NCBI GenBank assembly: GCA_000091205.1
Contig: AP006499.2
DNA from: Cyanidioschyzon merolae
Lineage: Eukaryota
DNA: 64,000 bases
Direction: 5' to 3' (one strand)
The notes below the pieces were generated by a model. That model made no database searches and was not told the origin of the DNA. It saw only the letters and a list, made by a program, of their open reading frames with translations. The position numbers were made by a program, and so were the translations under genes. Positions 10,076-36,300 of this stretch are shown here, piece by piece (position 1 is the first letter of the stretch; every line of letters starts with the position of its first letter).

Positions 10076-10253
10076 GAAACCAGGACGCTACGAGGCGCAT
10101 ACAGACGATAGAAATTTTGCCCGCATTCTAGCCACACGCCGCTCGCTCGCCGAAATGCACTGCAGGCAGCTGCTAAATAGATGACAAACGCTTAAATGCG
10201 AAGCAAAACAGACGCTGCTACAATGATCCATCGACGGCTTCTCGGGGCATTCG

Positions 10254-12872: not shown

Positions 12873-15621
12873 TATATTCTGGACCTATTTTGCACGACCA
12901 TCAGCACAAGTCATTGCAGTTTGCACCGCGACCGCTTCCTTCTCCTTTCCCGTATCTCCGACTTTCAATACGCTGGCGTCTCCTAGCCCTCCAGCTTCGA
13001 TGTCAGCAGGCGAAGGATGCCGATGGCTGCGTTCATTCGAACCCAGAGTTTCCTGCTTCCAGCCCTCATCGACGTACTTCATGCAAAGGCGGAAGTTGTG
13101 ATCTGCGCTTCTTTTAGCATTTTCATCCTTTTTGTCCACAACTCCGGTGCACCCTTCGCAGCGAGGACACTTGCCCGTTGTCCGGTGCCGCCATACGTCC
13201 ATCGCACGTCTTGCTCCGAGTGCCGCCCTGTGGCGCATGCCTGCTTGCAGTGTCGCTCGGTACACGCCCTCGACGGGTGCAGAGCGCTCCGCTCCATGCG
13301 CTCTTCAGTTTCTGTGCCCAGCGCCATACCCTGCGATCACAGGCTCGGGCTGGGCGATCCCCGCGGCAAGCACCCTCACTGCTGGGCGCGTAAACGCTCG
13401 CTGCTCGATTCGAGTACTCGGAATCCGCTCCCTCGCACGCTCTTCGTTTTTCGCGTACGCTTCCCATCGAAGCTGCCGACGAGCATCACGCGACTCGAGG
13501 TGCCGTGCCAGCTCATGAGTATTGTGCGCGCAGGTTCCATCCACTTGCGACGATGCGGGTCAGCCATCTGCGACTCCCTTCGTCTCCGGTCGCTCGCTCG
13601 CTCGCTTGCGTGTTCTTCTATCCCCATACTCGTTCGCTTCCGCTTCAGCGAAGATGGCAGGCGCGGGAGGAGAAGTCACGACTGTGGGCGTAACTCGGAC
13701 GTTTCCGATCCCGTGCCCCGGGACGGGGTGTCGGTTTCCACATGGGCGTCGGGCTTCGCCTCGGGTCTCACGGAGGCGCTGGTGCAACGCTTCGCTCTCC
13801 TTGGGCTCCTGCCGTTGCTAAGTGCACTGGATTGCAGGTTCACGAGGCCACGCATCTGTACAGCTTGCTGCTCATCGTCGCCGTGTTTCCTGTTCTGAGC
13901 AGGGGTGCGTTGGAGCTCTGATGGGGCCTTGAGGCATGTAGGGCGCTCACGACTGATAGCGGTGGATGCTGCCAGGCCATCGGTCTCGAACGAGGACACC
14001 ACGCCTCCTCGACTTTATGTGAGCGTTCTGTTTCTATCTGTTCCCTGCCTGTCGCATCTCTCTTTAGCGTCGTTCGCTTTTCGTTCCCCCAGCGGTTCAT
14101 GAGTGTCTCCGAAGTTTCGGGCGAAATTTGCGTAGTACGCTTCATGTACTCTATGCTGTCGATGGATACCTCCTCTTCTTCGATGTGCTCCTTGGCCTCC
14201 ATAGGACGTTTCCATGCCCTAATCCCTCGTGCGTGGGCGCCCACTTCGCAGCGAGGCGAAAAAGCCGCGAACCGGGGCGCGCGTACGAGCGACCTATAAA
14301 TGCGTTTACAGCAAGGCGAAAATCCATTCCATTCAGGGGCTCTGGAACAGTTCCCGAGGTGCAGAGGCTGTTTCACTCGCTCGGGTAGGCACTCGCAGGC
14401 TGCAGGTCTATAGTCTCCTCGACATGTTCGTCTTCCAGGATACTCAACGGAGGCTCACGCGCTCTGTATATCCGCCCAGCATATTCAAGTCGGCGAAGCG
14501 CCCGTCATGAAGAGCTCGTCCATGCCGTCCAGGCTGGTATCTGAGTCGTCATCCGCACGTATCCACGTCATCGAATCCTTCACGCGCCATGGGAATGAAT
14601 GCTGGCATGATCCAGGGTCGCGCGGCGTAGTTTTCCGCCCATATACACCTTTGAGTTATCCAGGCTGATTTGGGTCGCGAAGCGAATGCTGGCCTCGAAA
14701 TGCGCAACGTCGTTCGGCTATGGAGCCAAAGTGCCCGCGACGTCGATGAAAGCACAGTGCAGGTGAGGTGTGTCCCGACTACGCTTCGAGACAGTGACGG
14801 CATGAAAGGCCATCGATGCCAACGGTGCATCTACGAAGTTGTTCGGTTTCTCAGGGACCCCGATGCACTGGACGTACACGGTCCTAGGCAGGAGGTAAGC
14901 GCGCCACTGACGCATGCTGCAAAGAAGCGCATGTTTGCGGACGCGGAATCTGATATCCGGCGGGTGCGGGTGCATTTCGAAGTATCCCTTGCCGACAGTG
15001 GTGCCGTAGAATACCTCATACAAACAGCGAAGGAGGGAGTTTCCGAGATCGTATCCCGTGAGATGTAGCGCACTGCTTATTTGGGATGTGGTTTCGTTGA
15101 TGGTTGGAAAGCGAGAATATTTTGTGTTTCAAACGGAATCGATTATATGAGGTGAGGATTTGAACATACTTTCGGTATGAGCTCTTGAAGAAGTATTCGC
15201 ACGAAAACTTCCAACTTTTGCGTCGTCAACCGAGCGTAGCGGCCTGGTGCGCCCACGAGTAGCCTTGAAACATGGAGATCGGAAGCGTGCAGAATGCCTG
15301 ACTTGAGCGTGCAACGCGTAACTAAAGGAAAAGAGTTCAGGCTTCCTTGTACGAATTGCATCATGATATCGGCTATTTTAGGCAACGGTATGTGAGGATA
15401 TCTCGAATCACCTTGATGCTGGTGATGTAACGAATCCCTTCGGTGCAAAGTCGAGGGAGCCACTTTGAAGAGTCGACCGAGAATCCTAGAACGATGCATG
15501 AGTCCTGAGGCCCTCATTGCTGGACTATGAATACTCGGGTCCTGCATCTGAAAATGAGTTCGGGTGAAAAATCGAAATCGAGGAACACAGGCAGCAGCTC
15601 CGTGTTCTACTTCACTCCGAC
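12858..15621 (+). repeat. DR-A copy 1: 2.76-kb GC-rich non-coding direct repeat (full length)
   Basis: Collinear with 28111-30874 at a constant offset of 15253, with about 10 substitutions. Its 5' 1.34 kb is collinear with 18615-19951 at offset 5757, with no differences seen. There are no long or conserved ORFs. It contains (CTCG)n at ~13588. Confidence 0.9.
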
Positions 15622-15858
15622 CCGGGTGCCGACTCCGGCGATGCATCGCTGTGACGGCCAGCGGGCCCGCTGAGCTGCTTGCCCGGCGGCGGCAAACGGA
15701 CACGCTGTTGAGTGCACTCGGGGCACACGTTGATCTCGCGCCGGCGTCTATGCGACGCGTTTGAATAGGAACAAACAACAGCAATTTGCTCAACGAACAT
15801 AGTTCTGTGCCAAAGCTTTCCTGGGGAAGGCAGCTATCGAATATGCACAACTTTTAAT

Positions 15859-17118
15859 ATGCCGCAGTACGGAGCTCAAAATTGTTTTCTTCTGCGGGAG
15901 CTTTTCAACCATGTGGGGGATGGAGGATCCTTTTGGCAAAGACAAGCTCTCGTGCTGGTATTCGTGTGCCTCGCGGCGTTTTTGAATTCCATCACAGTCA
16001 TACTTCATTTCGTTGGCCAGAACTGGATGGCTCGTTGCTTGCAGTTCCATCTCGCAAAACAGGTTGTGAGGGCTCAGAGGAGGGCCGCGCAAGACAGAGC
16101 TTTTCGCTTAGGCAGCACGGTTGGACACACCGGCACCGGGGGCACACCTGAGTTTCTGTGCGCTTGCAAAGGCTGTAGGAAACTGAGCTCTGTGCTGAAC
16201 CCACAACAACGGCAAGCACTTGAGGCGAGCAGAGTTGTTAGAGTGAGGAAGCTTCTCGGTCAGCAAGGACTGCACGCTGAGGCCGCGAACAGCTCACAAT
16301 GGTGCTCTGACCTAACAATCATGCGCTATCTTGACTCGTACGGCTCTTGCCCTGCTCTCGCGGCGAAATATTTAGCCGCTACCATTAAGTGGAGGATCCA
16401 AAATTCTGTCCATGAGCTTACTGTCACTGAGTTTACTGAGGAGCTCAGAAAAGGTGTCGTTTCTTTCGGTGGGTTTGATTCGCAGTCACGACCGGTTTTC
16501 ATCGTCCGGTTCGTACCTGGTTTCAGCTTGAGACTTTTAATTTTCATGCTTGAAGTTGGTGAAAGCATCATTCGTAACTCTATGGAGCCTGATGTGCTGC
16601 GCAAGGATGCGCCAAGCGCATCAGCCACTCCAGGTGTCTGGCAAAGGATATACCGTTCAATGTTTCGGGGTATGAAACGGGTAGAATCTGACCGCAAGGT
16701 GCAAAATCGGGATCGATGGGTCTGGATCGTGGAATGGGGGAGCGTTCAGAGAGAATGCACCCGGGAAGCTTGCACGCAATGCACCCCTTCCGAAGACAGC
16801 CCTGTCCCTACAAAATACGCCGGCGGTGTCTCCGCATCGGAGCTTATAGGCGCCTTCCGAATATGTAATGAGCACTACCCGAACCGCTTGCATGCTGCAT
16901 ACGTCCTTGGAGCACCGGAACCTATCGTATCGCTGTTCAGAATCTTGGCAAAGAAGTCTACGAAGCGGAAGGTGCGATTTGTGCGACTAAGAGACGGATG
17001 TGATAGGGGTTCGCTTAGCGAATACGGTCCAATATGGCGCCGGCCCTGGGCTGCTACGGATTTTATTCAGCTGATCAACTATATTGATGGATCACTTGCC
17101 GTACAGAAGAGCAAATAA
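15859..17118 (+). CDS. CRAL-TRIO / Sec14-like lipid-transfer protein
   Basis: The CRAL-TRIO N-domain is 'SDLTIMRYLDSYGSCPALAAKYLAATIKWRIQNSVHELTVTEF'. The C-lobe 'AYVLGAPEPIVSLFRILAKKSTKRKVRFV' resembles Sec14 'FIINAPWIFS...KIHVL'. The N-terminal ~100 aa are probably not coding. Confidence 0.55.
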   Translation: MPQYGAQNCFLLRELFNHVGDGGSFWQRQALVLVFVCLAAFLNSITVILHFVGQNWMARCLQFHLAKQVVRAQRRAAQDRAFRLGSTVGHTGTGGTPEFLCACKGCRKLSSVLNPQQRQALEASRVVRVRKLLGQQGLHAEAANSSQWCSDLTIMRYLDSYGSCPALAAKYLAATIKWRIQNSVHELTVTEFTEELRKGVVSFGGFDSQSRPVFIVRFVPGFSLRLLIFMLEVGESIIRNSMEPDVLRKDAPSASATPGVWQRIYRSMFRGMKRVESDRKVQNRDRWVWIVEWGSVQRECTREACTQCTPSEDSPVPTKYAGGVSASELIGAFRICNEHYPNRLHAAYVLGAPEPIVSLFRILAKKSTKRKVRFVRLRDGCDRGSLSEYGPIWRRPWAATDFIQLINYIDGSLAVQKSK

Positions 17119-17674
17119 GGCAGTCCATATACAATTTACAGCTCGAGTGCTTCGCCTAAGCATTCGATATCGCGAATTGATCAGAATTTCTTCTGTTAGT
17201 TATGATGCGGCGGTCGGCTTTGTGCGTGCAAAACCCAAACAATGGAACAATGGTGACTGTTTTCTACGCGTTGCAGCCATCCGTTCCCACGTGCGACTCG
17301 GTTTCAGGACCTTCGGATCAGTACCTGAGCTCGCCACTTATTCGAATACTTTTCATGCTATTGGACGAAGCAGATCACCTCCGCGAAAGTTGACACCGCA
17401 TGAGACTTATTTCGTGGACGCGATGTCCAGAAGGCATGCTTAAAGAGCGGCTTGGATGCCTTGACGAGGTGCAGTTCGCCATCTGGCATTTAGGAGAAAA
17501 TGGCCGTACGAGCAAGGGCAGCAGAATCTGCGAGCATTCTAAAGGAAGAATATATGAAGCATCATCTCGAAGATGGCATGGCAGAATTATCTCATCTTTT
17601 ACCACCGTCAAATACTATTCCCCAAGCTTCTAAAATCCTCCGAAGCGTACGTCTCTTACAGTCCCTTTGCCCCT

Positions 17675-18319
17675 TCACTGTAATGGTTGAAAGTTCGTTA
17701 TCTGCTCGAAAGGCATCTTCCCGTTCAAGAACTCACCATGGATGATGCCCGCAAAGCCGAGCATGGCAAGTCGCCCGTTATTCACTTCCCGATCCCGCAT
17801 GGCCTTGTCGTTCGGCAAGTTGAGGGGATTGAAGCCCAGCTCACCAGGCTTCCGCCCTTTCCATTCCATATCGGAATAGAGCACCTTGCCACGGTGGAGC
17901 AGGAACTCAAGAAACCCGATGAATGCTAAGATCTGAATCATGGCCCCAGACTTGACGAAATAGTCATGGGCTGGTCCAGCGAGTTTAGGAGCCCCCGCGA
18001 AGAACGGAAACTGGTAAAACTCGGTTACGAAGAAGTGCAGGCAAGCGAGCATTGCGACGCGCCCGTTCTTAATCTCGCCCTCTTGAAGCCAGTTAACGTC
18101 GAACGCATCAGAGAAGCGAAGCGGGTCAAAACCACGATATCCCGGCATATCAGGCGACAGGTTAGGCGGTTTCGAAAGGAACGGTAGCGCCGGCGACTGC
18201 TCCATTTTTAGAGTAGCATAACCCGAAGCATGTCTCGAACGGATAGCGCTGGTGCCAGTTGCCTTGGATACCGTATTGGCGCGCTGAACAAGTGGAGCGA
18301 AACTCACGAAAGCGTACAT
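17675..18319 (-). CDS. Light-harvesting complex protein, fucoxanthin-chlorophyll a/c (FCP/Lhc) family, last exon
   Basis: Helix 1 is 'EGEIKNGRVAMLACLHF'. Helix 3 is 'REVNNGRLAMLGFAGIIHGEF'. 'IAFIGFLE' is identical to diatom FCP. 'GFDPL' is present. The 'FVS|FAP' motif sits only 6 aa from the ORF Met. Confidence 0.85.
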   Translation of the reverse strand: MYAFVSFAPLVQRANTVSKATGTSAIRSRHASGYATLKMEQSPALPFLSKPPNLSPDMPGYRGFDPLRFSDAFDVNWLQEGEIKNGRVAMLACLHFFVTEFYQFPFFAGAPKLAGPAHDYFVKSGAMIQILAFIGFLEFLLHRGKVLYSDMEWKGRKPGELGFNPLNLPNDKAMRDREVNNGRLAMLGFAGIIHGEFLNGKMPFEQITNFQPLQ

Positions 18320-18614
18320 TATCCAACAGTTGCCTCTGTCGAGAAAGAACGATCACCACACAACCCGAGGGCTTCTAGCGAGAATCTCCGGGCATTTTAC
18401 AGCGCACATGGAGCTGTTGCCGATCGCGGGAGCTCTGCGCCTGCACGCCGCTGCTGTGAGCTCGACGCTCGAAAAGCGATCGTGCCTTCCGAGGCGTCGC
18501 GCGTCACCACAAAATCGGTGGGTGCGCTCGAGCCAGCAACCTCGCCGATGCTGCAGCGGGCGCGCAGCTTCCGCCTATATCAGTCAAAGATAGAATAGAC
18601 CCCGTGAGGAAAGT

Positions 18615-19951
18615 CGGACGTACTCGCACTATATTCTGGACCTATTTTGCACGACCATCAGCACAAGTCATTGCAGTTTGCACCGCGACCGCTTCCTTCT
18701 CCTTTCCCGTATCTCCGACTTTCAATACGCTGGCGTCTCCTAGCCCTCCAGCTTCGATGTCAGCAGGCGAAGGATGCCGATGGCTGCGTTCATTCGAACC
18801 CAGAGTTTCCTGCTTCCAGCCCTCATCGACGTACTTCATGCAAAGGCGGAAGTTGTGATCTGCGCTTCTTTTAGCATTTTCATCCTTTTTGTCCACAACT
18901 CCGGTGCACCCTTCGCAGCGAGGACACTTGCCCGTTGTCCGGTGCCGCCATACGTCCATCGCACGTCTTGCTCCGAGTGCCGCCCTGTGGCGCATGCCTG
19001 CTTGCAGTGTCGCTCGGTACACGCCCTCGACGGGTGCAGAGCGCTCCGCTCCATGCGCTCTTCAGTTTCTGTGCCCAGCGCCATACCCTGCGATCACAGG
19101 CTCGGGCTGGGCGATCCCCGCGGCAAGCACCCTCACTGCTGGGCGCGTAAACGCTCGCTGCTCGATTCGAGTACTCGGAATCCGCTCCCTCGCACGCTCT
19201 TCGTTTTTCGCGTACGCTTCCCATCGAAGCTGCCGACGAGCATCACGCGACTCGAGGTGCCGTGCCAGCTCATGAGTATTGTGCGCGCAGGTTCCATCCA
19301 CTTGCGACGATGCGGGTCAGCCATCTGCGACTCCCTTCGTCTCCGGTCGCTCGCTCGCTCGCTTGCGTGTTCTTCTATCCCCATACTCGTTCGCTTCCGC
19401 TTCAGCGAAGATGGCAGGCGCGGGAGGAGAAGTCACGACTGTGGGCGTAACTCGGACGTTTCCGATCCCGTGCCCCGGGACGGGGTGTCGGTTTCCACAT
19501 GGGCGTCGGGCTTCGCCTCGGGTCTCACGGAGGCGCTGGTGCAACGCTTCGCTCTCCTTGGGCTCCTGCCGTTGCTGAGTGCACTGGATTGCAGGTTCAC
19601 GAGGCCACGCATCTGTACAGCTTGCTGCTCATCGTCGCCGTGTTTCCTGTTCTGAGCAGGGGTGCGTTGGAGCTCTGATGGGGCCTTGAGGCATGTAGGG
19701 CGCTCACGACTGATAGCGGTGGATGCTGCCAGGCCATCGGTCTCGAACGAGGACACCACGCCTCCTCGACTTTATGTGAGCGTTCTGTTTCTATCTGTTC
19801 CCTGCCTGTCGCATCTCTCTTTAGCGTCGTTCGCTTTTCGTTCCCCCAGCGGTTCATGAGTGTCTCCGAAGTTTCGGGCGAAATTTGCGTAGTACGCTTC
19901 ATGTACTCTATGCTGTCGATGGATACCTCCTCTTCTTCGATGTGCTCCTTG
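18615..19951 (+). repeat. DR-A copy 2: 5' half-copy (1.34 kb), identical to copy 1
   Basis: All mirrored ORF peptides are identical to copy 1. An extra ~55 bp of upstream flank (18560-18614) also matches copy 1 (12803-12857) but not copy 3. The repeat ends abruptly at 19951, with 'ctccttg|ttctaacg' versus copy 1 'ctccttg|gcctcc'. Confidence 0.9.
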
Positions 19952-20155
19952 TTCTAACGCGGCCTCAAAACCTTTTTCTTGATCGCGGGACACCTACTTA
20001 GCTGGAACATTGTATGCAAAATCGCTCATGTTTGTTAATACAGAGACCCCGGAGGCACATTCACATGCACGTTCGGGCCCACATTCTCATTCGAAAAAAC
20101 TAACATACAAGTAAGTTCCACAATGCCAAATCTGGCGTGGTTTATGGCGGTACAA

Positions 20156-21922
20156 CTATTTTCTGCTATTCATAGGCTTGGGATCACGAAAAAGTTTCTC
20201 GTCGCTCAGACCATGTGAGTTGAGAAATGTCACTAGAAGTCGCACACGTTTTTCGATTTTTGTAGGCTCTGCCACAACTGAAGTATCCACAGATCGTTCC
20301 GCAGTAGGACACGTGTTTCGTAGCACTTGGCGGAGAGGAGAAAGAGCTTTTCTTCCATAAAAGGAGCAAAGTTCAATCAGAAGATGGCCGTAAAACTCGT
20401 TCGTCTTCTTTTCATTCAGATAACACTGGAGAATAGCTTCTAAAGCCTGATACAGCGAAGCGCTTCGTGAACTACGGCTTAGTAACTTGTAAATTCTTGA
20501 AGCGGCTTCTATGAAATTCACAGAGGAGGCCAAAATCTCAACAACTGATCTGCCAGTCGCGCTCCAGATACGATTCCTATCCAGTAAAGAAGAGATTCGA
20601 TCCTTGGATTCCAAGAGCTCAGTAGCTCCTGACGTACCCTTCGACGAAGCCCTTCTGGTGAGGCTAGAATTCTCCCAAAGGATCCCGCCATCAGTTACTA
20701 GGCTCTCCTTGCTCGCATCATCACAAACTTCGGGGCGTTTTGAAATAGTCGCGTTTGCTCTAATGCGTTTTTCGTAAACGAAAGATGATCCTAGTTTGGC
20801 ATGAACCCACAGTAAAGCTTCGGGCACAGGTTCCAGAGCGCTCTGAGCGCTCAGCTCTTGTGATCGACTTTCGCGTACGACGTCCGCAATAACTGTTTCT
20901 ATCATGTAAACTGTGCAGCCTTCATGAAACTCTCTGAAGTGGCTGCTTCTTTCGCATCCACACGAGGTAGTCTCATGCATGTTCCTACAGATACTTCTTA
21001 GTTGAGCCTCGAATGCCGCAAACTTTTCGGGAAAAGAATTACGAAGATGCAAACCACAGAGCTTCGTGACATGAAGCATACCAACGAGACCGACTGCGTT
21101 TCCGCTGTTGAGCACGGATGACTTGGCAAGTTCAAATACGACTTCCCATTCAATCATTCCGCCCAGAAACAGATGGCATAGCGGCGTTAAAGCATCAAGC
21201 AAATTTTGCAAGTCTAATCTTCCGGATGCTCCAACATTTTGGAGCCTCTCTGTGACTTTCACGAAAAAGCAGTTGACGAAACTAGCGTCGACGGTGCAGT
21301 GAAGATAAATCAGAACAGCACACAAAGCTGCACAGTTAAATGTTGATACGCCTTCATGCTGCCCTTTTGGGTTTTCCATAGCAACCGAATTTTCAAACGT
21401 GCGCCCCATGCGAGCAGAACAAAGAACTGTACAAAATATGTCTCTCAAATGGACGAACCCAAGGGGGTCATGACGAATCTCAGAAAAATACTTGTAAAGT
21501 TTGCTGCAAGTGAGGTCCAGATTCGTGTCCGAAACTCGGTTAAGAATGCTGCTCAGTTGCGAAACGAGACTATCAATCTCATTTTGGGTCCAGGTTTTTC
21601 CCTTTTCCCGCGCACTCGACAGCTTGGTAGCCGTCCCCTCTTGTGGGGCCACATCTTCGTCAACTGCATCTGCGGAAAGACTGGTCTCAGCACCAGACTT
21701 CATCGACTTAACCTTCTGGTTGTTGCTTTTTAAAAGCGGTCCTATGATCACGCCCAGAGAGTCTACGTCGTTTGAAAGAAACTCCGCAGCCTCCCACGTC
21801 TTCAAATCAGTTTGAGGAAAGGCGTACGGGCTCCCACGGCTCTTTCTCTTTCTTGAAAACTTCCGATCGAAGCCTTCAATCTTTCTCTTCAATCTGCTTT
21901 GCAGGCTCAGCTCCTCGTCCAT
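20156..21922 (-). CDS. Hypothetical alpha-helical protein (588 aa), possibly MIF4G-like
   Basis: Long ORF. The 'LVSQLSSILNRVSDTNLDLTCSKLYKYF' segment loosely resembles the start of a MIF4G domain. No firm family assignment. Confidence 0.4.
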   Translation of the reverse strand: MDEELSLQSRLKRKIEGFDRKFSRKRKSRGSPYAFPQTDLKTWEAAEFLSNDVDSLGVIIGPLLKSNNQKVKSMKSGAETSLSADAVDEDVAPQEGTATKLSSAREKGKTWTQNEIDSLVSQLSSILNRVSDTNLDLTCSKLYKYFSEIRHDPLGFVHLRDIFCTVLCSARMGRTFENSVAMENPKGQHEGVSTFNCAALCAVLIYLHCTVDASFVNCFFVKVTERLQNVGASGRLDLQNLLDALTPLCHLFLGGMIEWEVVFELAKSSVLNSGNAVGLVGMLHVTKLCGLHLRNSFPEKFAAFEAQLRSICRNMHETTSCGCERSSHFREFHEGCTVYMIETVIADVVRESRSQELSAQSALEPVPEALLWVHAKLGSSFVYEKRIRANATISKRPEVCDDASKESLVTDGGILWENSSLTRRASSKGTSGATELLESKDRISSLLDRNRIWSATGRSVVEILASSVNFIEAASRIYKLLSRSSRSASLYQALEAILQCYLNEKKTNEFYGHLLIELCSFYGRKALSPLRQVLRNTCPTAERSVDTSVVAEPTKIEKRVRLLVTFLNSHGLSDEKLFRDPKPMNSRK

Positions 21923-22033
21923 GGTCAGCTAAACCCGTCTCCAGTAAAGCAAGGGAAACCAGCTGTGCACGCACGCCTTTTATCGAGGGACTGCCGTTTT
22001 CGAAATCGCGTTGTATGGATCGCTAACTGCGCC

Positions 22034-23390
22034 CATGCAGGAGTGATTTGGAACTGGTCCCACGTAATTTACTCGGTCGAACACTCTAGTCTTTCAGCCT
22101 CTTCCGTCCGTCATTAACTTCAGCCTTTGCGAGCAGTTTCTGCGTATGTTTCCTTTCCTTTTCCCGTACCTCCGGCTTTAAGTGTGCCGGTACCTCACTT
22201 CCATCCAGCTCCGTTCGAAGCAGTCGAAGGATGGTAATAGTGGCCTTAGGGTCCCGAGTTCATTGCCTACGGTTGCTTTCTACGCATTTCATGCACAGAC
22301 GGTAGTTGCGGCCTGCGCGTCACTTCCCATTTTTATTTTCTATGCATACAGCCTACGTGTGCCCTTCGCTGCGGTGAGACTCGGCCCGGTTCAGTTGTTC
22401 ACATATTTCTACAATGTCCCGTCCTCCGCGGGCACCCCTGTGGCTCGAGGTAGCTTGCTATATCGCTCAGTATATGCCTTTGACCCGTACAGAGGTCTTG
22501 TATCGATGCCCTCCTCGGTTTTTCGCGCGCGGTGCCGTATCCTACGATCATGGGCTTCTTCTGGACGGTTTTCTCAGCGAACATGCTGAAGGCTGCATGC
22601 ACGTGCGAACCTTGTTCCATTTGATAAAAGATTTCTTGTATGCGTGAATGCCCTTGATGGTGCACGCACCGGTAGGTTAATCCCGCATGGAGAAGTCTAG
22701 AAATTCCGATCCGAGTGCGCTTCCTCTGTGGAGAGCGGTGACGCAGACGCCACAGGGAGCGATCGTTGTCATGACTGAAGACGGAGTCCAAAAACATTCT
22801 CCAAGCGAACAGACGACTCAAGAGCCACTCGGAGCGCATCCCTAGAAGGTACCATGCTCCTGCAGAGTCTTATTTAATCGACGGCCGCTAAAAGAGGTAG
22901 ACCAGTTCGTCGAACAAAATCGACTGTTGAACTTGGCAAGTTAGGTCAACTTTCTGAACGACTTTGTGAACATGTCGTTCATGGACGACGTAGAGCCTAT
23001 TTTCTCGTCAATTCATAGGCACGAATTACCGCGACAATGAGTTGCCTTGAAGCAGAGAGATCCGCAACATGAAGAACGCGGGATATGAAAATGTTACAAG
23101 AAAAGAAAGGAAAATACCATGGGTGTGGCAGTATTAATTGGAAACGGTGCCGGCCATTGTACGAACGCTCGTTCCACGGCACCGCGAATCATCCTGATTC
23201 CGGTGATGCGTTTAACTCCGGCAGCGAAACGTCGATGTAAACTTTCCGAAAATACGACCAAGCACCCTGAACTAAGAATGAAACAGTCAAGCCTTATTGC
23301 GACACCTGAGAGAGTCGAGGCTGAACGACTGAAAACCTGGGGGAAGATCATAGCACAAGTATAGAGCAAACCATTCAGTGGTGCACTTAA
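22034..23390. repeat. Left arm of 1.36-kb inverted repeat (IR-B)
   Basis: Its reverse complement matches 24859-26216. The ORF peptides are mirrored with 1-2 aa differences (SMFAEK/SIFAEK, SEHAEG/SENAEG). A degenerate extension runs to ~22011. Confidence 0.9.
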
Positions 23391-24858
23391 TGCTTGCGCA
23401 TATGGTTACTGTGCACGGGATAATAGTATGGAGAGATCTCTTCTATACATCATCAATATGCTGTGTGGGAGGAAGGAATTCATATTCCTACCGCGTAAAA
23501 ACTCGTGCATTTCTATTCGCGTTCGGACAGTAACGTCTTCTAGTCACTGTCTGCGTCACCTTCGAAGACAAAAAAGCTTTGCTCGCAAAACTGACATTTT
23601 TCCGGAATATTTTTACAACGCCCGCAAATAATCGCTAATCCTACTCTATAACCGAATTGTTTAAATAACGGGTACCGGGAAAGATCTGGTTGTTCTACAA
23701 ATTGTGCACTGAACGTTCTGCGCGTGATGCATTTTACTTCTATAGAAAATTGAATTTTCAACACCGAAACCGCTTATTGCGCGCAACCTAAATCGGCGCA
23801 GCGGATTGAGTTTTGATTTACTGCTTGGAAGCTAACTGTTCTATGCTGAATATTCTCTGCGATACGGCAATTCTTTGATCACTTAGTAGACGTCGTTCTA
23901 CTTTTAACATATTCTAACTCTTTTGGGGTTGGCGTGTTCAATTTCGCCTGGCCCGTTCTAGCTGGGGCTGTCTAAAAAGACCAGTTGTCTCTTGTCGTGC
24001 GTTCCATTGCTGCCCGAATGCCATTTCATATTTATTGGTTCAAACCCAAAAAAACTGTCTGACTCTGCTCCGTTGTATCAAGCGAGCCACTTCAATGGGT
24101 CAGAGGTTGTTGAGAACGTCGTATTCTTTCAACCATTAACACAGTTTCAGAAGACGACCGAAGGTTTGCTGGCTGGGACAAGATTTTGCGAAAATTTGCA
24201 GTGCAGCAAATCGGGGATCGATTATTCTTAACAAGTAGAAATGAGATCAAGCTCGAAGAATCAATGAAAATGTGTTTATTCTGCCGTAGGTCGCTCGTTT
24301 TCATCCTTCTGTGCACCCATTATTGTTGGATGTTGTTGCGCTTGAGATGAAGACCCTTTCATAGCTCTCCTAGAATAGAAGTTCATTAGAAATGAAAACT
24401 GCACGATTCAGAAATAAGCTACAGATTCAGGAGTATCTGTTTTGATTCATTCTATTCTCTTCAATTTTTGCTGCCCAAAAAATGCATGTCCAGAGCCCCG
24501 ACGATTCTAGCTAAGCCCTATCTTTCCAGTTTTGCGAACCAGAGTAGTTTTCGACACTAGACATCAAATATTCGGCGTAGAGCGAGGCCGTTTATGATTT
24601 TGTAGCAGAAGAGAGCAAAGCATTCAATTCACGCGTGGTATCTCAGATCAAATGCAGAGTCTCAATCATGACCGTGCCATTTCCATGGCTTCATTTTAGT
24701 GGTGTATCTTCAGGATGTTTTCTGCAGCCGCTGACCGCAGGAAACCACAGTTTCATCGTACACAGACGCTAATTCACCTTGATGAGAGGCTATGGCAGGC
24801 ATATTGCGATGCAGGCGGATGCTGCGACCACAGCACTTCTTTGTACTTCAGTGTCAGC

Positions 24859-26216
24859 TTTAAGTGCACCACTGAATGGTTTGCTCTATACTTGTGCTAT
24901 GATCTTCCCCCAGGTTTTCAGTCGTTCAGCCTCGACTCTCTCAGGTGTCGCAATAAGGCTTGACTGTTTCATTCTTAGTTCAGGGTGCTTGGTCGTATTT
25001 TCGGAAAGTTTACATCGACGTTTCGCTGCCGGAGTTAAACGCATCACCGGAATCAGGATGATTCGCGGTGCCGTGGAACGAGCGTTCGTACAATGGCCGG
25101 CACCGTTTCCAATTAATACTGCCACACCCATGGTATTTTCCTTTCTTTTCTTGTAACATTTTCATATCCCGCGTTCTTCATGTTGCGGATCTCTCTGCTT
25201 CAAGGCAACTCATTGTCGCGGTAATTCGTGCCTATGAATTGACGAGAAAATAGGCTCTACGTCGTCCATGAACGACATGTTCACAAAGTCGTTCAGAAAG
25301 TTGACCTAACTTGCCAAGTTCAACAGTCGATTTTGTTCGACGAACTGGTCTACCTCTTTTAGCGGCCGTCGATTAAATAAGACTCTGCAGGAGCATGGTA
25401 CCTTCTAGGGATGCGCTCCGAGTGGCTCTTGAGTCGTCTGTTCGCTTGGAGAATGTTTTTGGACTCCGTCTTCAGTCATGACAACGATCGCTCCCTGTGG
25501 CGTCTGCGTCACCGCTCTCCACAGAGGAAGCGCACTCGGATCGGAATTTCTAGACTTCTCCATGCGGGATTAACCTACCGGTGCGTGCACCATCAAGGGC
25601 ATTCACGCATACAAGAAATCTTTTATCAAATGGAACAAGGTTCGCACGTGCATGCAGCCTTCAGCATTTTCGCTGAGAAAACCGTCCAGAAGAAGCCCAT
25701 GATCGTAGGATACGGCACCGCGCGCGAAAAACCGAGGAGGGCATCGATACAAGACCTCTGTACGGGTCAAAGGCATATACTGAGCGATATAGCAAGCTAC
25801 CTCGAGCCACAGGGGTGCCCGCGGAGGACGGGACATTGTAGAAATATGTGAACAACTGAACCGGGCCGAGTCTCACCGCAGCGAAGGGCACACGTAGGCT
25901 GTATGCATAGAAAATAAAAATGGGAAGTGACGCGCAGGCCGCAACTACCGTCTGTGCATGAAATGCGTAGAAAGCAACCGTAGGCAATGAACTCGGGACC
26001 CTAAGGCCACTATTACCATCCTTCGACTGCTTCGAACGGAGCTGGATGGAAGTGAGGTACCGGCACACTTAAAGCCGGAGGTACGGGAAAAGGAAAGGAA
26101 ACATACGCAGAAACTGCTCGCAAAGGCTGAAGTTAATGACGGACGGAAGAGGCTGAAAGACTAGAGTGTTCGACCGAGTAAATTACGTGGGACCAGTTCC
26201 AAATCACTCCTGCATG
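24859..26216. repeat. Right arm of inverted repeat IR-B
   Basis: It is the reverse complement of 22034-23390. The inner junction is sharp, with 'ggtgcacttaa' shared and flanks diverging. Confidence 0.9.
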
Positions 26217-26886
26217 AGCGCATTCCATACAATGATCACCTCTGGCAAGCTCGAATCGCCCGAGAAACCTTGAAAGCATTCTATACTTTTTCAGAATTGG
26301 AGGGAAAATTGAAAGCTTTGCCTCAAAACGATTGATAACAAAAAAGGCTGCCTAACCCGAAACCCCGAACTCATACGTCCGTACGCTTGACTTAAAAACT
26401 CGTGCATGAAAACTATTCGAGATTGCCGTATACCAAAAAGTAGATCGATTCATCACATAAGTGCATATCTGCACCCTTTCGCTAATCTGAAACTTGTTCG
26501 TCTGTGGGTTCCAGGTCGCGTGAATAACTCTGCTTGAAGATACAAATCATGATAACGTGTGAAGTCTATGAATTACCACTGGATTGATGAAAAATTTCTC
26601 AGCATATGCGCATCACCTACTGTTTAAAAAGCTCTTGAGAATTTTTACAGAACATGCTCACAATTTCGAAATGCGCGGTTACTTGGTAAGCGACTCTCGT
26701 CTAGGCTGTACTGAACTCGGGGAGTATCTGATAATGAGATGCAGAAATATTGCAAGTATCTAGGCTCTCGAAAGCTTCTCATACCTTGCTAAGGATCACT
26801 GCCTGAAGCATGGCTGATCCTGGGAACATCGCTGTGGAAAATTCAGTTCCTCTAAATTAAGCGTTCTGTAAGTTTGTAGCCAGAAT

Positions 26887-27912
26887 ATGGTATTTGTTAG
26901 GGTACTAGCCAAACCTATTACCTTTCGCTATCTTTCCTTGATTTTAATTTTATACGGAAGTCTTTCTGCTTCTATTGTTGCTGAGAAAAATTGCGTAGTC
27001 TTGGCGGCAAATGTTTTCAACAACGTAGGAACGGTAGACCTGTTTCACACGCTCCTCTCTGACTTAGAGGGAATGCTACAAGCCGCTGGGTTTTCCACAG
27101 GCCTGTGCATCTACGAAGACAACTCGAGGGATGGTACCGACGTTCGAGTTTCCCAGTGGAATCAGTCCCGGCGAGGAACACCGTTCACGAGGATCCTTGC
27201 AGACAAGACACCCCCCACGGCAACGGAACGCGTGTCGAGAATAGCAGTTGTTCGCAGCCGTTTGCTGAATCTTATCCATGAGGTTCTGGCGGAAATGCAA
27301 AATTGTTCTGGACGGTATATATTATTTTTTAACGATGTTGTCTTCGAACCATCGGATGTTCATAAGATGGTGCTAGACGGAATCCGGCAGAACTTTGACA
27401 TGCTCTGCGCAGTGGACGTCTATCGAGGGTTTTATGACCGTTGGGTTACTCGGGATGCCTCTGGATTGATCCCATCGCGGTGGGCATCTGTCTTCTTCAC
27501 CGGGAAAACTGGTTCCAGAATACGCAATAAAGATGCAACTGAGTGGCGGACAGATTTTTGGCCTTCGAGAGCCTGCTGGAATGGAGCTGTTTTGGTTAAC
27601 GCAGAAAGTGCACCGCGCAGTTTCCGCAGTGCGAGGAATGACGAATGCTATGCTTCAGAATGCAAGCTTTTTGTTGACGATCTCTTGAAGGAACGTGGCG
27701 GCCAAGCGCGTGTTGCGGTGAGACTCGATACGCTTGTGGCGTACGACGTTATCCATCTCTTACTACATAAGTTTGTTATCAGGACATATGCCTCCCATAT
27801 TGCTGCTTTTCAAAGCCTCGGAGAACTCATTGTGAAAGCGAAGCATCGCTATCAGGCGGAGAGGGTTCTCCAATCAGACCCCTGTCCGAAATTACCAATG
27901 CTTTGTTGTTGA
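26887..27912 (+). CDS. Putative type II membrane GT-A-fold glycosyltransferase-like protein
   Basis: The N-terminal hydrophobic segment is 'YLSLILILYGSLSASIVA'. 'LCIYEDNSRDGTDV' resembles the GT2/GT-A 'DDGSTDGT' nucleotide-sugar motif. 'ILFFNDVVFEP' is a possible DxD equivalent. It is a 341-aa ORF. Confidence 0.35.
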   Translation: MVFVRVLAKPITFRYLSLILILYGSLSASIVAEKNCVVLAANVFNNVGTVDLFHTLLSDLEGMLQAAGFSTGLCIYEDNSRDGTDVRVSQWNQSRRGTPFTRILADKTPPTATERVSRIAVVRSRLLNLIHEVLAEMQNCSGRYILFFNDVVFEPSDVHKMVLDGIRQNFDMLCAVDVYRGFYDRWVTRDASGLIPSRWASVFFTGKTGSRIRNKDATEWRTDFWPSRACWNGAVLVNAESAPRSFRSARNDECYASECKLFVDDLLKERGGQARVAVRLDTLVAYDVIHLLLHKFVIRTYASHIAAFQSLGELIVKAKHRYQAERVLQSDPCPKLPMLCC

Positions 27913-28110
27913 TTGCTACGGAAATGTTTTGAACTGTTTCACGAATCATTGTTATTTATTTTCAAAAGTAACTCATGAAACTCTCGCAAAGAATTGAAGC
28001 GCATGTGGCCATCCTCCTGTAAGGCGCTTAGCCGTTTAAAAACCATTAATATGGCCCACGCAGATCGTCTTAGACCTATATTAATTTCAGATGGAGGAGA
28101 TCCTCGCACA

Positions 28111-30874
28111 CGGACGTACTCGCACTATATTCTGGACCTATTTTGCACGACCATCAGCACAAGTCATTGCAGTTTGCACCGCGACCGCTTCCTTCTCCTT
28201 TCCCGTATCTCCGACTTTCAATACGCTGGCGTCTCCTAGCCCTCCAGCTTCGATGTCAGCAGGCGAAGGATGCCGATGGCTGCGTTCATTCGAACCCAGA
28301 GTTTCCTGCTTCCAGCCCTCATCGACGTACTTCATGCAAAGGCGGAAGTTGTGATCTGCGCTTCTTTTAGCATTTTCATCCTTTTTGTCCACAACTCCGG
28401 TGCACCCTTCGCAGCGAGGACACTTGCCCGTTGTCCGGTGCCGCCATACGTCCATCGCACGTCTTGCTCCGAGTGCCGCCCTGTGGCGCATGCCTGCTTG
28501 CAGTGTCGCTCGGTACACGCCCTCGACGGGTGCAGAGCGCTCCGCTTCATGCGCTCTTCAGTTTCTGTGCCCAGCGCCATACCCTGCGATCACAGGCTCG
28601 GGCTGGGCGATCCCCGCGGCAAGCACCCTCACTGCTGGGCGCGTAAACGCTCGCTGCTCGATTCGAGTACTCGGAATCCGCTCCCTCGCACGCTCTTCGT
28701 TTTTCGCGTACGCTTCCCATCGAAGCTGCCGACGAGCATCACGCGACTCGAGGTGCCGTGCCAGCTCATGAGTATTGTGCGCGCAGGTTCCATCCACTTG
28801 CGACGATGCGGGTCAGCCATCTGCGACTCCCTTCGTCTCCGGTCGCTCGCTCGCTCGCTTGCGTGTTCTTCTATCCCCATACTCGTTCGCTTCCGCTTCA
28901 GCGAAGATGGCAGGCGCGGGAGGAGAAGTCACGACTGTGGGCGTAACTCGGACGTTTCCGATCCCGTGCCCCGGGACGGGGTGTCGGTTTCCACATGGGC
29001 GTCGGACTTCGCCTCGGGTCTCACGGAGGCGCTGGTGCAACGCTTCGCTCTCCTTGGGCTCCTGCCGTTGCTGAGTGCACTGGATTGCAGGTTCACGAGG
29101 CCACGCATCTGTACAGCTTGCTGCTCATCGTCGCCGTGTTTCCTGTTCTGAGCAGGGGTGCGTTGGAGCTCTGATGGGGCCTTGAGGCATGTAGGGCGCT
29201 CACGACTGATAGCGGTGGATGCTGCCAGGCCATCGGTCTCGAACGAGGACACCACGCCTCCTCGACTTTATGTGAGCGTTCTGTTTCTATCTGTTCCCTG
29301 CCTGTCGCATCTCTCTTTAGCGTCGTTCGCTTTTCGTTCCCCCAGCGGTTCATGAGTGTCTCCGAAGTTTCGGGCGAAATTTGGGTAGTACGCTTCATGT
29401 ACTCTATGCTGTCGATGGATACCTCCTCTTCTTCGATGTGCTCCTTGGCCTCCATAGGACGTTTCCATGCCCTAATCCCTCGTGCGTGGGCGCCCACTTC
29501 GCAGCGAGGCGAAAAAGCCGCGAACCGGGGCGCGCGTACGAGCGACCTATAAATGCGTTTACAGCAAGGCGAAAATCCATTCCATTCAGGGGCTCTGGAA
29601 CAGTTCCCGAGGTGCAGAGGCTGTTTCACTCGCTCGGGTAGGCACTCGCAGGCTGCAGGTCTATAGTCTCCTCGACATGTTCGTCTTCCAGGATACTCAA
29701 CGGAGGCTCACGCGCTCTGTATATCCGCCCAGCATATTCAAGTCGGCGAAGCGCCCGTCATGAAGAGCTCGTCCATGCCGTCCAGGCTGGTATCTGAGTC
29801 GTCATCCGCACGTATCCACGTCATCGAATCCTTCACGCGCCATGGGAATGAATGCTGGCATGATCCAGGGTCGCGCGGCGTAGTTTTCCGCCCATATACA
29901 CCTTTGAGTTATCCAGGCTGATTTGGGTCGCGAAGCGAATGCTGGCCTCGAAATGCGCAACGTCGTTCGGCTATGGAGCCAAAGTGCCCGCGACGTCGAT
30001 GAAAGCACAGTGCAGGTGAGGTGTGTCCCGACTACGCTTCGAGACAGTGACGGCATGAAAGGCCATCGATGCCAACGGTGCATCTACGAAGTTGTTCGGT
30101 TTCTCAGGGACCCCGATGCACTGGACGTACACGGTCCTAGGCAGGAGGTAAGCGCGCCACTGACGCATGCTGCAAAGAAGCGCATGTTTGCGGACGCGGA
30201 ATCTGATATCCGGCGGGTGCGGGTGCATTTCGAAGTATCCCTTGCCGACAGTGGTGCCGTAGAATACCTCATACAAACAGCGAAGGAGGGAGTTTCCGAG
30301 ATCGTATCCCGTGAGATGTAGCGCACTGCTTATTTGGGATGTGGTTTCGTTGATGGTTGGAAAGCGAGAATATTTTGTGTTTCAAACGGAATCGATTATA
30401 TGAGGTGAGGATTTGAACATACTTTCGGTATGAGCTCTTGAAGAAGTATTCGCACGAAAACTTCCAACTTTTGCGTCGTCAACCGAGCGTAGCGGCCTGG
30501 TGCGCCCACGAGTAGCCTTGAAACATGGAGATCGGAAGCGTGCAGAATGCCTGACTTGAGCGTGCAACGCGTAACTAAAGGAAAAGAGTTCAGGCTTCCT
30601 TGTACGAATTGCATCATGATATCGGCTATTTTAGGCAACGGTATGTGAGGATATCTCGAATCACCTTGATGCTGGTGATGTAACGAATCCCTTCGGTGCA
30701 AAGTCGAGGGAGCCACTTTGAAGAGTCGACCGAGAATCCTAGAACGATGCATGAGTCCTGAGGCCCTCATTGCTGGACTATGAATACTCGGGTCCTGCAT
30801 CTGAAAATGAGTTCGGGTGAAAAATCGAAATCGAGGAACACAGGCAGCAGCTCCGTGTTCTACTTCACTCCGAC
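28111..30874 (+). repeat. DR-A copy 3: full-length 2.76-kb direct repeat
   Basis: Collinear with copy 1 at offset 15253. About 10 substitutions are seen as single-aa changes in the mirrored ORFs. The flanks are unrelated to those of copy 1. Confidence 0.9.
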
Positions 30875-33177: not shown

Positions 33178-34138
33178 CCGTTCTCAACGATGCCCCAGGT
33201 GTTCCTCACCGCGGATAGAGAAACAGAAGCACAGTTTGGAGACGGCTGCTCAAAAAATTGCTCTCTGACTCCGAACACCACGACGGTACGGCAGCGGGCA
33301 ATCGTAAAAACGTGCTTCCGGAACGTTCCCTTGCTTGCCGGAACTAAAATAGTGTAGCCCGCGGCACTGCGTACAGCGCAGCGTAGCGATCGTTGCGATG
33401 GCGAGCGGCTCGTCGATCTTGGTTGAAGCCGCGTTCCGCTCATTTTCGTGACTGCGACGGTGGCGGATGTTACGGCCATGGCCATAGCCATAGCCATAGT
33501 AAAAGAGCGCTCCACTCGTGCCAAATTACGCTGGAACACTAAAGTGCTTCCAGTTTTCCTGGGTCTCGAATTTTAGGCCCGCTTTTAAGTAAAAAGCGCC
33601 GAATTTCCGAGAACACCAACGAGATCTTACGGAGTCAAGCATAGCACTAGGAATCCCGGTCCTCGATTCAGCGTGGCTTCCTGGGTTTTGCCGCTGGAAT
33701 TCGTTGTATCACTGGACTCAAGATGCTTCACGACGCCCTCGAACTAGGGATGATTAACTTCCTGTTATCATTATCCTGTATATGAGTGCAAGCCTCCACA
33801 CGTTTCCTTACCATATGTCTAGCGTGCTCAAGTCATGCATTCTCCAGGATTTCCATATTTCTGGTTCGAGGGGATTCATAGGCGCAGCGATTTGAGCCAC
33901 TGGATTAAAGACGAAAAATACTTGAAGCTATTCGTTAAAACCCTGTTCATCATTCCATGCCGAAAGTTCAGAAAATGTGGCATATGGAAAGATCAGTACC
34001 ATTTGAAACACCTATCCGCCTCTCTTTGTGGTCATCCACGCAAAGTCATTCCATAGCAATACCTTAGCGCTCACGAGCTACGTTGCAAGAGGCTCCCGTC
34101 CCATTTGTTTACATGAAGAAGGGTCCTGGACTCGGGAT

Positions 34139-34771
34139 TCACGCATCGAATTGATCGCTTGTCTTCGTATATTCATAACAGATTTGCACGATGGAGGCGT
34201 AGACAAATCGAAATTGTCGACTTTTCTCCAGCCTGGTTTTTCCTTCCGGTAGGGTTTCGTCATCGACAACATCGCGTTCCCAGTCCTCTGTCAGGTGGAG
34301 CAGCGTGCGCTTGGGCGTGCCGCAGACAGAATATTCTCCGAGGGCATCGCTCGGGGCAAGCCCGAGCTCCCAGGGTACGGCGCCATACGCGGAAGCGGAC
34401 GGGAGTTTGGATCGCATTCTTCTCCGCCTCTCGGGGCCATGTTCGGCGACTTGAAGCAATTTTTCACGCCCCATATAGCGACGTCTGGAGGCGACGTTTT
34501 GGTTGACGTATGGGAAAATCTTTCCAGTGCAAAATTTTACCGTTGCGAAGTACGCATCGAGGATGTACATGAAGAATACGAAAATGCAGTTGAACTGTAG
34601 ATCTCCTAACCAATTGTGGATGAAATCTGGCCAAAATAGCCGAAATGAGCGAAATCGGATCTTGAACGCCACCGCCAGCATCCTTCGACTGCTGAGAACG
34701 GAGCCGGAAGGGCAGGAGAGACCGGAGTTTTCAAATCCCGAGACCAGAAAGAGGAAGAGAAACAGTTGCAC
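34139..34771 (-). CDS. Hypothetical small membrane protein
   Basis: It is a 210-aa ORF with two strongly hydrophobic N-terminal segments ('LFLFLFLVSGF', 'NCIFVFFMYILDAYFATV'). No family was recognised. Opposite-strand ORFs are shorter. Confidence 0.25.
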   Translation of the reverse strand: MQLFLFLFLVSGFENSGLSCPSGSVLSSRRMLAVAFKIRFRSFRLFWPDFIHNWLGDLQFNCIFVFFMYILDAYFATVKFCTGKIFPYVNQNVASRRRYMGREKLLQVAEHGPERRRRMRSKLPSASAYGAVPWELGLAPSDALGEYSVCGTPKRTLLHLTEDWERDVVDDETLPEGKTRLEKSRQFRFVYASIVQICYEYTKTSDQFDA

Positions 34772-36300
34772 AAAATCCCATTTATGCTGGAGTTAATGAT
34801 CGCACGAAGAGATCGACACTCAATAGTGCAAGGTAGAGTGAGATAGATGAATTCGTCGCATGTTAGTCTAGCATGGGTGTATAGGATGTTAATCCCCGCT
34901 ACACAAGTGAGTTGAGATACTCGGCAAGGCGTCAGCTCTCCTAGATGCAGACGCGAGACGTGCATTTGGTTCGGAGAAAAACCAGCTTTGCACGAATCTT
35001 GCTTGGTACGCTTCAGGGAGTCGAGTTTTGATGCGAAGAGGCTAGGTTATAGTCAACTGACCTCAACAGATTATTGCATACATCTAGAAAGGAGATCGAA
35101 TGCAAAAGGGTCCTAACATGTTGAAAAACCCCGCAAGCTAGCATGCATCAAGATCATTCGGAGATCCTCTCTAGGACGTCAGTGTGGGGCGGTGCAAACC
35201 GAATTGCTATTCCTGATTTTTCTTTGTTTCTGTGCATTTTCACGGACTGCAGTCGCGTTACCATCATGGGAAGGCTCTAAAATCCGCAAACGCGAAACAA
35301 GCGTGCTGGCATTAAATGCGAACCTGATCCACAGCTATTGCTCTCGCCCTTGTCCAGGATTCCACCATGGATTTCGCACTTAACATATGTGATGTCACCG
35401 CCTTTTCTATCTCCTACATCAAAAAGCGAACTATGTACATATTTTTCATAACATTGATCAATTATAAAAACTTTCGAAGTTAAAATCGGAATTATATGCA
35501 TTTTGAATGCGTAGTTACGTGATGTTTTCGGGCAAGACTCTTCTAATGCAGAGATTGCCTTCCGGAATGGATGCATTTTTGTGAAGCTCGCGCATCAGTC
35601 CTCCCACTCGAAGGACTCGTAAACGGAGCCTTGGTTGTTTGGTCTCGTCTTTTTAGACGAGATCGCGCTGCGTAGACGATATTCGAACAGCATTTTGCGT
35701 GAAAGATCTGGTTATCGCAAGTACTTGTATCAGAAAGAGTAGAACGAGAGCTCCCTTGAGACTCAATTTTACCGACTGATACGTGTGGACTTCGCAATTC
35801 TTCCCTAAACTTTGGAATTTCATGAGGGAGTTAGCTAGATTGACGGGTTCTTGAAGAATAACGCCATCTGACCTCGATATGTGCCTGCTCCTACGGAAAC
35901 TTTCCACGTGTTCGTTTGTTTTGCGCAGATGCCATCGCGGAAGTCCCTCACCGTGGACAAAATCTCTTCCATGGCCAACGTCTTTTCTAATATTTTCGAT
36001 GATCCGTTACCAGAAATGGTACTTGGTGGAAGCGAACTGGTACCGTTCTGCTTTTCGCCGGCGAATACGGTCAGGCGATGGCAAATACTTCGTTGTGAAA
36101 GAGATTCCTCTGGTTCTAAATAGGATGACACGTCGTGTTATCGATCAGCACAGCCTGAATGAGCATACAGAACACCCGCAAAAGCAACTCCGAACGCGGT
36201 CTGAGGATTCAAGGCATGGTTATTCTGGGCGAAAACCGACAGCAGCGCAATTCACGATGTGAGGTACCAGTATTATTTTCTGAACAGAACAACTCGAATA

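Follow-up and report, generated by a model that had tools for sequence, protein, structure and literature searches.

What is the 4.2-kb palindrome that fills the gap between two divergent genes of Cyanidioschyzon merolae? The structure, here called IR-B, lies in a 64,000-nt stretch of contig AP006499.2, which is the window of this analysis and is numbered from its first letter. It consists of two near-identical inverted arms around a spacer. A sequence-only reading had suggested a foldback-type element, a recent inverted duplication around a fragile AT-rich site, or a hairpin-forming element. The results given below indicate, with a probability of roughly three in four, that IR-B is two complete, near-identical copies of a dispersed repeat, family 1, placed tail-to-tail 1.46 kb apart in a long divergent gap of low G + C content (GC), i.e. 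an ordinary young inverted repeat pair.

Structure of the inverted repeat

Direct comparison confirmed an inverted repeat with arms of 1367 nt each, 1461 nt apart, and the repeat search showed it to be the sole inverted pair in 20-28.5 kb. Its parts, as defined by repeat, open reading frame (ORF) and GC scans and by nhmmer, are as follows.

22028-23394, plus strand: left arm, one complete family 1 unit (inverted repeat; nhmmer family matches)
23395-24855, no strand: spacer, unique, low-GC (0.43), geneless and not self-palindromic (repeat, ORF and GC scans; nhmmer)
24856-26222, minus strand: right arm, a second complete family 1 unit, tail-to-tail with the left (inverted repeat; nhmmer)
26223-26886, no strand: unique low-GC (0.416) DNA from the right arm to the start of CMQ146C (GC scan; nhmmer)

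The arms differ by three mismatches, at 22033, 22582 and 23391 (99.8% identity). Two of the three lie no more than 6 nt from the arm ends, leaving one interior difference. The narrower arms of the sequence-only reading (22034-23390 and 24859-26216) are the core of this repeat with its single mismatch, and the outer limits of 22011-26233 correspond to a short degenerate extension outside the arms, picked up by profile search, in which 22009/22011 pairs with 26232/26234. In the direct comparison the similarity stops abruptly at both sides, with short matches resuming just past a mismatch at both arm ends. No eroded palindrome was found beyond the arms and no symmetry within the spacer at a significant level; outside the arms there was only a 9-nt match after an 8-nt indel. 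A direct repeat or target-site duplication around the 4.2-kb structure was looked for at 22027/26223 and none was found.

The spacer has a GC of 0.430 compared to 0.515 for the window and is the lowest-GC 1.5-kb stretch within it. Its AT-richness is nevertheless modest and had been overstated as striking, since the adjoining unique segment at 26223-26886 is even lower at 0.416 and other intergenic stretches have values of 0.45-0.50. The longest spacer ORFs are of 74-82 aa, and no Pfam, Rfam or tRNA match was observed in the spacer, in agreement with the earlier statement that it holds no recognisable gene. With no ORF of more than 82 aa and no Pfam match, the spacer does not contain the transposase that would be expected between the inverted ends of a class II element with terminal inverted repeats or of a composite transposon. 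No copies of the spacer were found elsewhere in the window by nhmmer.

The arms are units of a dispersed repeat family

Word-based searches (repeat finder; blastn with word size 11) show only the two arms, and the view drawn from them, that the arms are a two-copy sequence, was overturned by nhmmer. The first match of the arm to DR-A, a direct repeat of the window, came from blastn with relaxed scoring (word size 7). Using the arm as query, nhmmer then gave three solitary relatives on the minus strand, at 61752-63084 (E-value 8e-91), 48707-49981 (2.5e-81) and 33535-34878 (6e-75). It also matched arm positions 42-597 to the 5' parts of DR-A at 12853-13413, 18610-19170 and 28110-28666, and arm positions 775-1358 to the 3' parts at 15017-15609 and 30270-30862, with E-values for the DR-A ends of 6e-39 and 1e-21. 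As a control, 20 dinucleotide shuffles of the arm gave no match at E<=10, and searching back with C1, the copy at 61.7 kb, returned the same set of copies. Extended with a hidden Markov model (HMM) of the family, the copies outside IR-B are the following.

12803-15621, plus strand: DR-A1, a family 1 unit (5' part 12814-13413, 3' part 15018-15636) with a 1.6-kb GC-rich central insert (repeat search; nhmmer/HMM)
18560-20004, plus strand: DR-A2, a DR-A variant copy, 3'-truncated (repeat search; HMM)
28056-30874, plus strand: DR-A3, a DR-A variant copy, near-identical to DR-A1 from 48 nt inside the unit to the unit 3' end (repeat search; HMM)
33524-34881, minus strand: C3, a further old, solitary and full-length copy of family 1, sharing ~55% identity with the arm; its family frame holds an ORF of 210 aa (nhmmer/HMM)
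48681-49983, minus strand: C2, an old solitary full-length family 1 copy (nhmmer/HMM)
61745-63104, minus strand: C1, an old solitary full-length family 1 copy (nhmmer/HMM)

The nhmmer matches at both of its ends indicate that DR-A is a family 1 unit with a 1.6-kb central insert; DR-A and the IR-B arms belong to one repeat family. The insert itself (13414-15017, 28667-30269 and, in part, 19171-20004) has a GC of ~0.6 and is without relatives elsewhere in the window.

The five lineages, i.e. the arm, DR-A, C1, C2 and C3, are roughly equidistant at 53-60% identity, and the only young pairs are arm with arm (99.8%) and DR-A with DR-A (99.9%). There are thus five young unit-length copies, three DR-A and two arms, in 18 kb. 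A sliding comparison among the old copies gave mean identities of 0.5-0.74 inside the arm coordinates and 0.31-0.46, which is background, outside them on both sides. The family HMM found complete units outside the window on further contigs, at 9728-11102 of L046 and 400-1775 of L047 and twice in L045. In HMM coordinates these units start at 55-62 and end at 1428-1437, and the identity between the IR-B arms runs from ~61 to ~1425, so that the arm ends coincide with the family unit ends within ~6 nt at the 5' side and ~12 nt at the 3' side. Because the unit ends given by the HMM match the limits of arm identity, each IR-B arm is one whole unit of a dispersed ~1.37-kb family and not an arbitrary segment. 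Within the window family 1 has 8 copies; three further contigs add 4 units (L046 and L047 share ORF P0065), and 17 ORF clusters, which are described below, come from elsewhere.

The sequence-only reading had named the presence of the arm elsewhere as single copies as the result that would speak against it, and this is essentially what was observed: solitary copies lie at 33524-34881, 48681-49983 and 61745-63104, with more in DR-A and outside the window. Its statement that the arms encode nothing recognisable holds for known protein and RNA families but misses the family that they share with DR-A.

Two further observations concern the family as a whole. The two L045 units, at 9767-11156 on the plus strand and 14354-15707 on the minus strand of this unrelated contig, are diverged and also lie tail-to-tail, around a gene for a Miro-like GTPase; given this pair, the tail-to-tail arrangement may not be unique to IR-B. 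Furthermore, all nine independent lineages of family 1, counting the window and L045-L047, are full length at 1.33-1.39 kb with few indels despite ~56% identity, which is unusual for decaying repeats.

Coding content of the repeat unit

The arms gave no Pfam match and no codon-position GC signal, a homologue of the 146-aa arm ORF was sought and not found, and a search for structured RNA or tRNA was negative. Similarity by tblastx among the window copies occurs in all frames, and their synonymous fraction is 0.07-0.22 across all six frames. The candidate of protein-coding arms was therefore rejected, there being no family match, codon signal or ORF homologue and the tblastx and synonymous data being frame-unspecific. 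Likewise, a search with the 293-aa ORF of DR-A recovered its own cluster and no homologues beyond it, and this ORF was dropped as a marker of a high-copy family.

Starting from the C3 ORF of 210 aa, a full HMMER search returned 17 orphan ORF clusters with lengths of 127-291 aa, all derived from contigs of metagenome, Logan and ENA assemblies. All 17 match one strand and one region of every window copy, both arms included. None is present in the NCBI annotation, none has a Pfam match and their alignment is without an invariant column. In the arm version the family ORF frame is broken by 3 in-frame stops. The family 1 unit carries only a degenerate orphan ORF.

IR-B in independent assemblies

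Contigs were collected by exact-protein look-ups and one DNA scan, which gave many independent JGI, ENA, Logan and metagenome assemblies that are 99.7-100% identical to the window. The junction of left flank and arm is reproduced in L017-L019, L011 and L012 and that of right flank and arm in L001, L007-L010, L026 and L033, while both arm-spacer junctions are spanned in L011, L012, L013 and L026. Since all four junctions recur in independent assemblies, IR-B is not an assembly artefact, a suspicion raised in the sequence-only reading, and it occurs in independent natural populations. The near-identical, young arm sequence was met only in contexts of the IR-B locus.

Many of the contigs end ~80-150 nt into an arm, which is typical of a collapsed repeat. 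The reference alone has the left-arm allele at 22582, which is absent from all other records, and the arm interiors appear identical in environmental contigs reaching the flanks. At the site 22971/25279 the sequence of strain 10D differs from some environmental contigs, yet the left-anchored arm (L011) and the right-anchored arm (L001) agree with each other.

The orientation of the spacer varies between contigs: L011 and L012 attach it to CMQ144C in the direction opposite to the reference and L026 has the reference direction. Another inverted repeat of the window, IR-A, likewise has its inter-arm segment in both orientations (L035-L037 as opposed to L038), and the alleles at nine IR-A marker sites in contigs are mosaics, as collapsed assembly would also give. 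A flip-flop inversion of the spacer was considered on the basis of the metagenome contigs and rejected as evidence, the arms exceeding the reach of short reads and the allele patterns being mosaic. The both-orientation contigs at IR-B and IR-A may reflect real arm-to-arm recombination or conversion, or the path chosen by the assembler through collapsed repeats.

Flanking genes and related genera

The locus is on chromosome 17 (1,232,258 nt) of C. merolae 10D and the flanking ORFs match 10D proteins exactly. Both flanking genes are transcribed away from the repeat.

20156-21922, minus strand: CMQ144C, MA3/MI-domain protein, left flank (exact protein match)
26887-27912, plus strand: CMQ146C, CAP59-type mannosyltransferase, right flank (exact protein match)

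IR-B fills the 4964-nt gap between these divergent genes (GC 0.469), which is the longest gene-free interval of the window. The 5' ends of the arms face the two start codons, that of CMQ144C at 105 nt and that of CMQ146C at 664 nt. The protein accessions of the neighbourhood run consecutively from BAM82044 to BAM82050 and no annotated protein gene lies within IR-B. Lhcr1 is CMQ142C (PMC13306765) and is located at 17675-18319, which would place CMQ143 on DR-A2 and CMQ145 inside IR-B, both as non-protein features. The skipped numbers CMQ143 and CMQ145 are thus compatible with features other than coding sequences annotated on DR-A2 and IR-B.

Comparison was made with the nearest available relatives, represented by contig L027 for Cyanidiococcus yangmingshanensis and by L028-L031 for a second lineage; protein identity between orthologues is ~49%. 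Gene order in Cyanidiococcus is AIG1(-) CAP59(+) MA3(+) mL41(+); in the relatives CAP59 and MA3 are tandem neighbours separated by 1.8 kb of low-GC DNA, and there is no inverted repeat. Neither arm nor spacer showed similarity to the Cyanidiococcus loci by blastn, tblastx or HMM. In C. merolae the CAP59-MA3 pair has moved out of this block and is now divergent, with IR-B between the two genes and DR-A2 and DR-A3 bracketing them; the repeat search bore out the earlier remark that IR-B sits between two DR-A copies. As gene order and orientation differ from Cyanidiococcus, IR-B lies at a rearrangement breakpoint. It is common to strains that are 0-0.2% diverged, with one interior arm difference, and is absent from the relatives.

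Other repeats and an additional reading frame

IR-A (2805-4043 / 7800-9038) is 99.3% identical between its arms, has two copies only and flanks the AIG1/Toc34-like and mL41 genes. In C. yangmingshanensis an unrelated 1.9-kb inverted repeat, 97-99% identical, is found at the equivalent intergenic positions around the syntenic block (L027 4220-6122 / 15685-17586); its divergence is 3.4% in the outer 320 nt compared to 0.4% inside. No inverted repeat is present in a third lineage (L028), whose block is inverted relative to RADX. The repeats at the IR-A position could represent a long-lived invertible block maintained by conversion, or recurrent formation.

A second diverged dispersed family is present at 6588-7205 (plus strand), 48121-48631 (minus strand) and 63185-63804 (minus strand) with E-values of 1e-50 to 1e-55. 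Two of its copies abut C2 and C1, one on each side, a hint of an older composite or tandem arrangement. A third diverged family, at 37118-37516, 51361-51663 and 57932-58600, includes a 196-nt inverted repeat (57989-58184 / 58335-58530) that is 80% complementary. Finally, a 180-aa ORF at 9533-10075 on the minus strand shares 54% identity with an ORF located at the syntenic Cyanidiococcus position and has a weak match to ATP-synt_10. It is found in many metagenome contigs, has no NCBI accession and may be a gene that the 10D protein annotation lacks.

Discussion

The results above support a young, or homogenised, duplication in a repeat-dense and rearranged interval, so that of the earlier suggestions the recent inverted duplication survives. 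As the young copies start and stop at unit ends, unit-wise, transposition-like copying is the suggested route. The second arm would then have arisen by recent copying of a whole unit, either transposition-like or templated by a repeat, in the course of the rearrangements by which the CAP59-MA3 gene pair was moved and reoriented. The arms would be near-identical through youth, possibly aided by gene conversion from arm to arm, which is plausible because homologous recombination in C. merolae is very efficient (PMC12636532). The distribution of mismatches, their position at the edges and the alleles shared between arms fit such conversion, and a young duplication together with collapsed assemblies fits them equally well. 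IR-B itself would have no hairpin or cruciform function, and its effects would be passive ones, as a substrate for recombinational inversion of the spacer and as a sequence that breaks short-read assemblies.

Several points weigh against this explanation. Mobility of the unit is suggested by the unit-bounded young copies and by no other result. Terminal inverted repeats, target-site duplications and known transposase or reverse-transcriptase domains were sought in the unit and none was found, so the copies may instead derive from local repeat-templated duplication, and the fact that the young copies all lie within 18 kb is also compatible with local recombination-based duplication. The old copies keep their full length with few indels at ~56% identity, which hints at a constraint that a dead repeat does not explain. 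The tally of family 1 covers the window and the further contigs. Lastly, identity with the element of Nozaki et al., which is considered below, is likely rather than proven, and the 293-aa ORF of DR-A has no homologues beyond its own cluster. A bolder form of the explanation is possible but we regard it as doubtful. In this form the 1.37-kb unit would be a mobile element that is still active and fits no recognised class, having a short orphan ORF but neither terminal inverted repeats, a target-site duplication nor a known enzyme domain, in a genome from which active transposons are said to be almost absent. IR-B and DR-A would be its newest local insertions and recombination between them would be reshaping the neighbourhood, including inversion of the spacer, which does occur in both orientations among environmental contigs.

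Of the rival explanations, the one that survives best is a generic inverted segmental duplication, made by replication template switching or fold-back repair at a breakpoint, in which the match to the unit ends is accidental. IR-B does lie at a rearrangement breakpoint relative to Cyanidiococcus, the same 30 kb also holds IR-A and three direct copies at 99.3-99.9% identity, and the lack of a target-site duplication and the short matches just past the mismatch at both arm ends would suit such an origin. However, both ends of the near-identical segment match independently defined unit ends, to within ~6 and ~12 nt, and unit ends delimit the DR-A copies as well, a coincidence that is unlikely for arbitrary breakpoints. 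An accidental match is therefore considered unlikely.

A maintained functional palindrome appears less likely still. Here the arms would be kept identical by conversion and would act as an upstream module shared by the divergent genes, or as an invertible switch. The arm 5' ends facing both start codons would suit such a module, and further support could be seen in the two mismatches out of three within 6 nt of the arm ends, an edge enrichment similar to that of the Cyanidiococcus inverted repeat, in the site 22971/25279, which differs between 10D and environmental contigs and is the same in both arms, and in the contigs with both spacer orientations (L011/L012 and L026). These signals are weakened by the length of the arms, as 1.37 kb is not phasable by short reads and the allele mosaics at IR-A are also expected from collapsed assembly. 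A single interior difference is the expectation for a young duplication at 0-0.2% strain divergence, and the arm sequence is without conservation in related genera.

It is highly improbable that the chromosome 17 centromere is formed by the low-GC spacer, alone or together with the adjoining unique DNA, and has repeat units on either side. As cited in bioRxiv 10.1101/096016, C. merolae centromeres are single gene-free low-GC regions of 2-3 kb with 48.4% GC, against 55% genome-wide. The CMQ144C-CMQ146C interval is in keeping with this in size and GC (4964 nt without genes at 0.469, the spacer at 0.43) and combines the longest gene-free interval with the lowest-GC stretch of the window. Low GC is not discriminating, though, as several other 2.5-kb stretches of the window are below 48%, a 64-kb window out of a 1.23-Mb chromosome carries a prior of ~5%, and the published centromeres are described as nonrepetitive and otherwise patternless, whereas the IR-B arms are repeat units around a unique spacer.

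There remains the instability expected of a large palindrome in the sequence-only reading. Long spacers lower the instability of inverted repeats, and cruciform extrusion from duplex DNA is unlikely at 1.46 kb. IR-B, whose spacer is unique and of this length, is not a true palindrome for which instability would be expected, and extrusion is very unlikely here.

With IR-B taken as an ordinary pair of family 1 copies, its importance is limited and a mysterious palindrome is removed from the list of candidates. The arms looked orphan since word-based repeat finders miss relatives at ~56% identity. The C. merolae genome has been described as nearly transposon-free, and it is in such a genome that five young unit-length copies are found within 18 kb. 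The inverted copies adjoin two promoters in an organism whose efficient homologous recombination serves gene targeting, and in short-read data the IR-B locus will mis-assemble or show two orientations. What remains is mildly odd: old copies that are full length at ~56% identity with few indels, and an element of no recognisable class.

Comparison with known systems

IR-B resembles foldback transposons and the long-hairpin loci that give rise to small RNAs in having long inverted arms around a central region. The proposed foldback element does not hold up, as in each arm Tandem Repeats Finder (TRF) found only a 12-nt unit repeated 1.9 times and not the tandem subrepeats of foldback transposons, no direct repeat or target-site duplication flanks the structure, the spacer is unique and the unit also occurs singly, its other copies being solitary. 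A hairpin giving small interfering RNA is implausible because Cyanidiophyceae, C. merolae included, have lost Dicer (DCL) and Argonaute (AGO) (PMC12770821, PMC9812998).

A low-GC, gene-free core between near-identical inverted repeats, as seen in the sequence of IR-B, is also the plan of the centromeres of Schizosaccharomyces pombe and Candida tropicalis; unlike these, C. merolae centromeres are reported as nonrepetitive. Compared with the primate sex-chromosome palindromes, whose arms are maintained by conversion, the IR-B arms differ at 1 interior site and the strains are 0-0.2% diverged.

Parallels are also offered by inverted pairs of transposable elements or segmental duplications, between which non-allelic homologous recombination brings about inversions. 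IR-B shares with them near-identical inverted units, a unique spacer and a gene order differing from relatives. It departs from them in that inversion of its spacer is only hypothetical and, the spacer being geneless, would have no obvious consequence.

A further known system is from C. merolae itself. Nozaki et al. 2007 (PMC1955436) reported an element of 253 copies with an average length of 3.2 kb, which is transcribed and carries a truncated ORF weakly similar to WSV486 of white spot syndrome virus (WSSV). The arm-type unit differs from it in length, being 1.37 kb and not 3.2 kb. Family 1 is likewise dispersed in the same genome, is not annotated as protein and has a truncated or degenerate orphan ORF; the DR-A variant at 2.8 kb is near the reported 3.2 kb, and the skipped numbers CMQ143 and CMQ145 are compatible with the same element. 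It is probable that family 1 is this published element, named a 'novel interspersed repetitive element', whose ORF is truncated.

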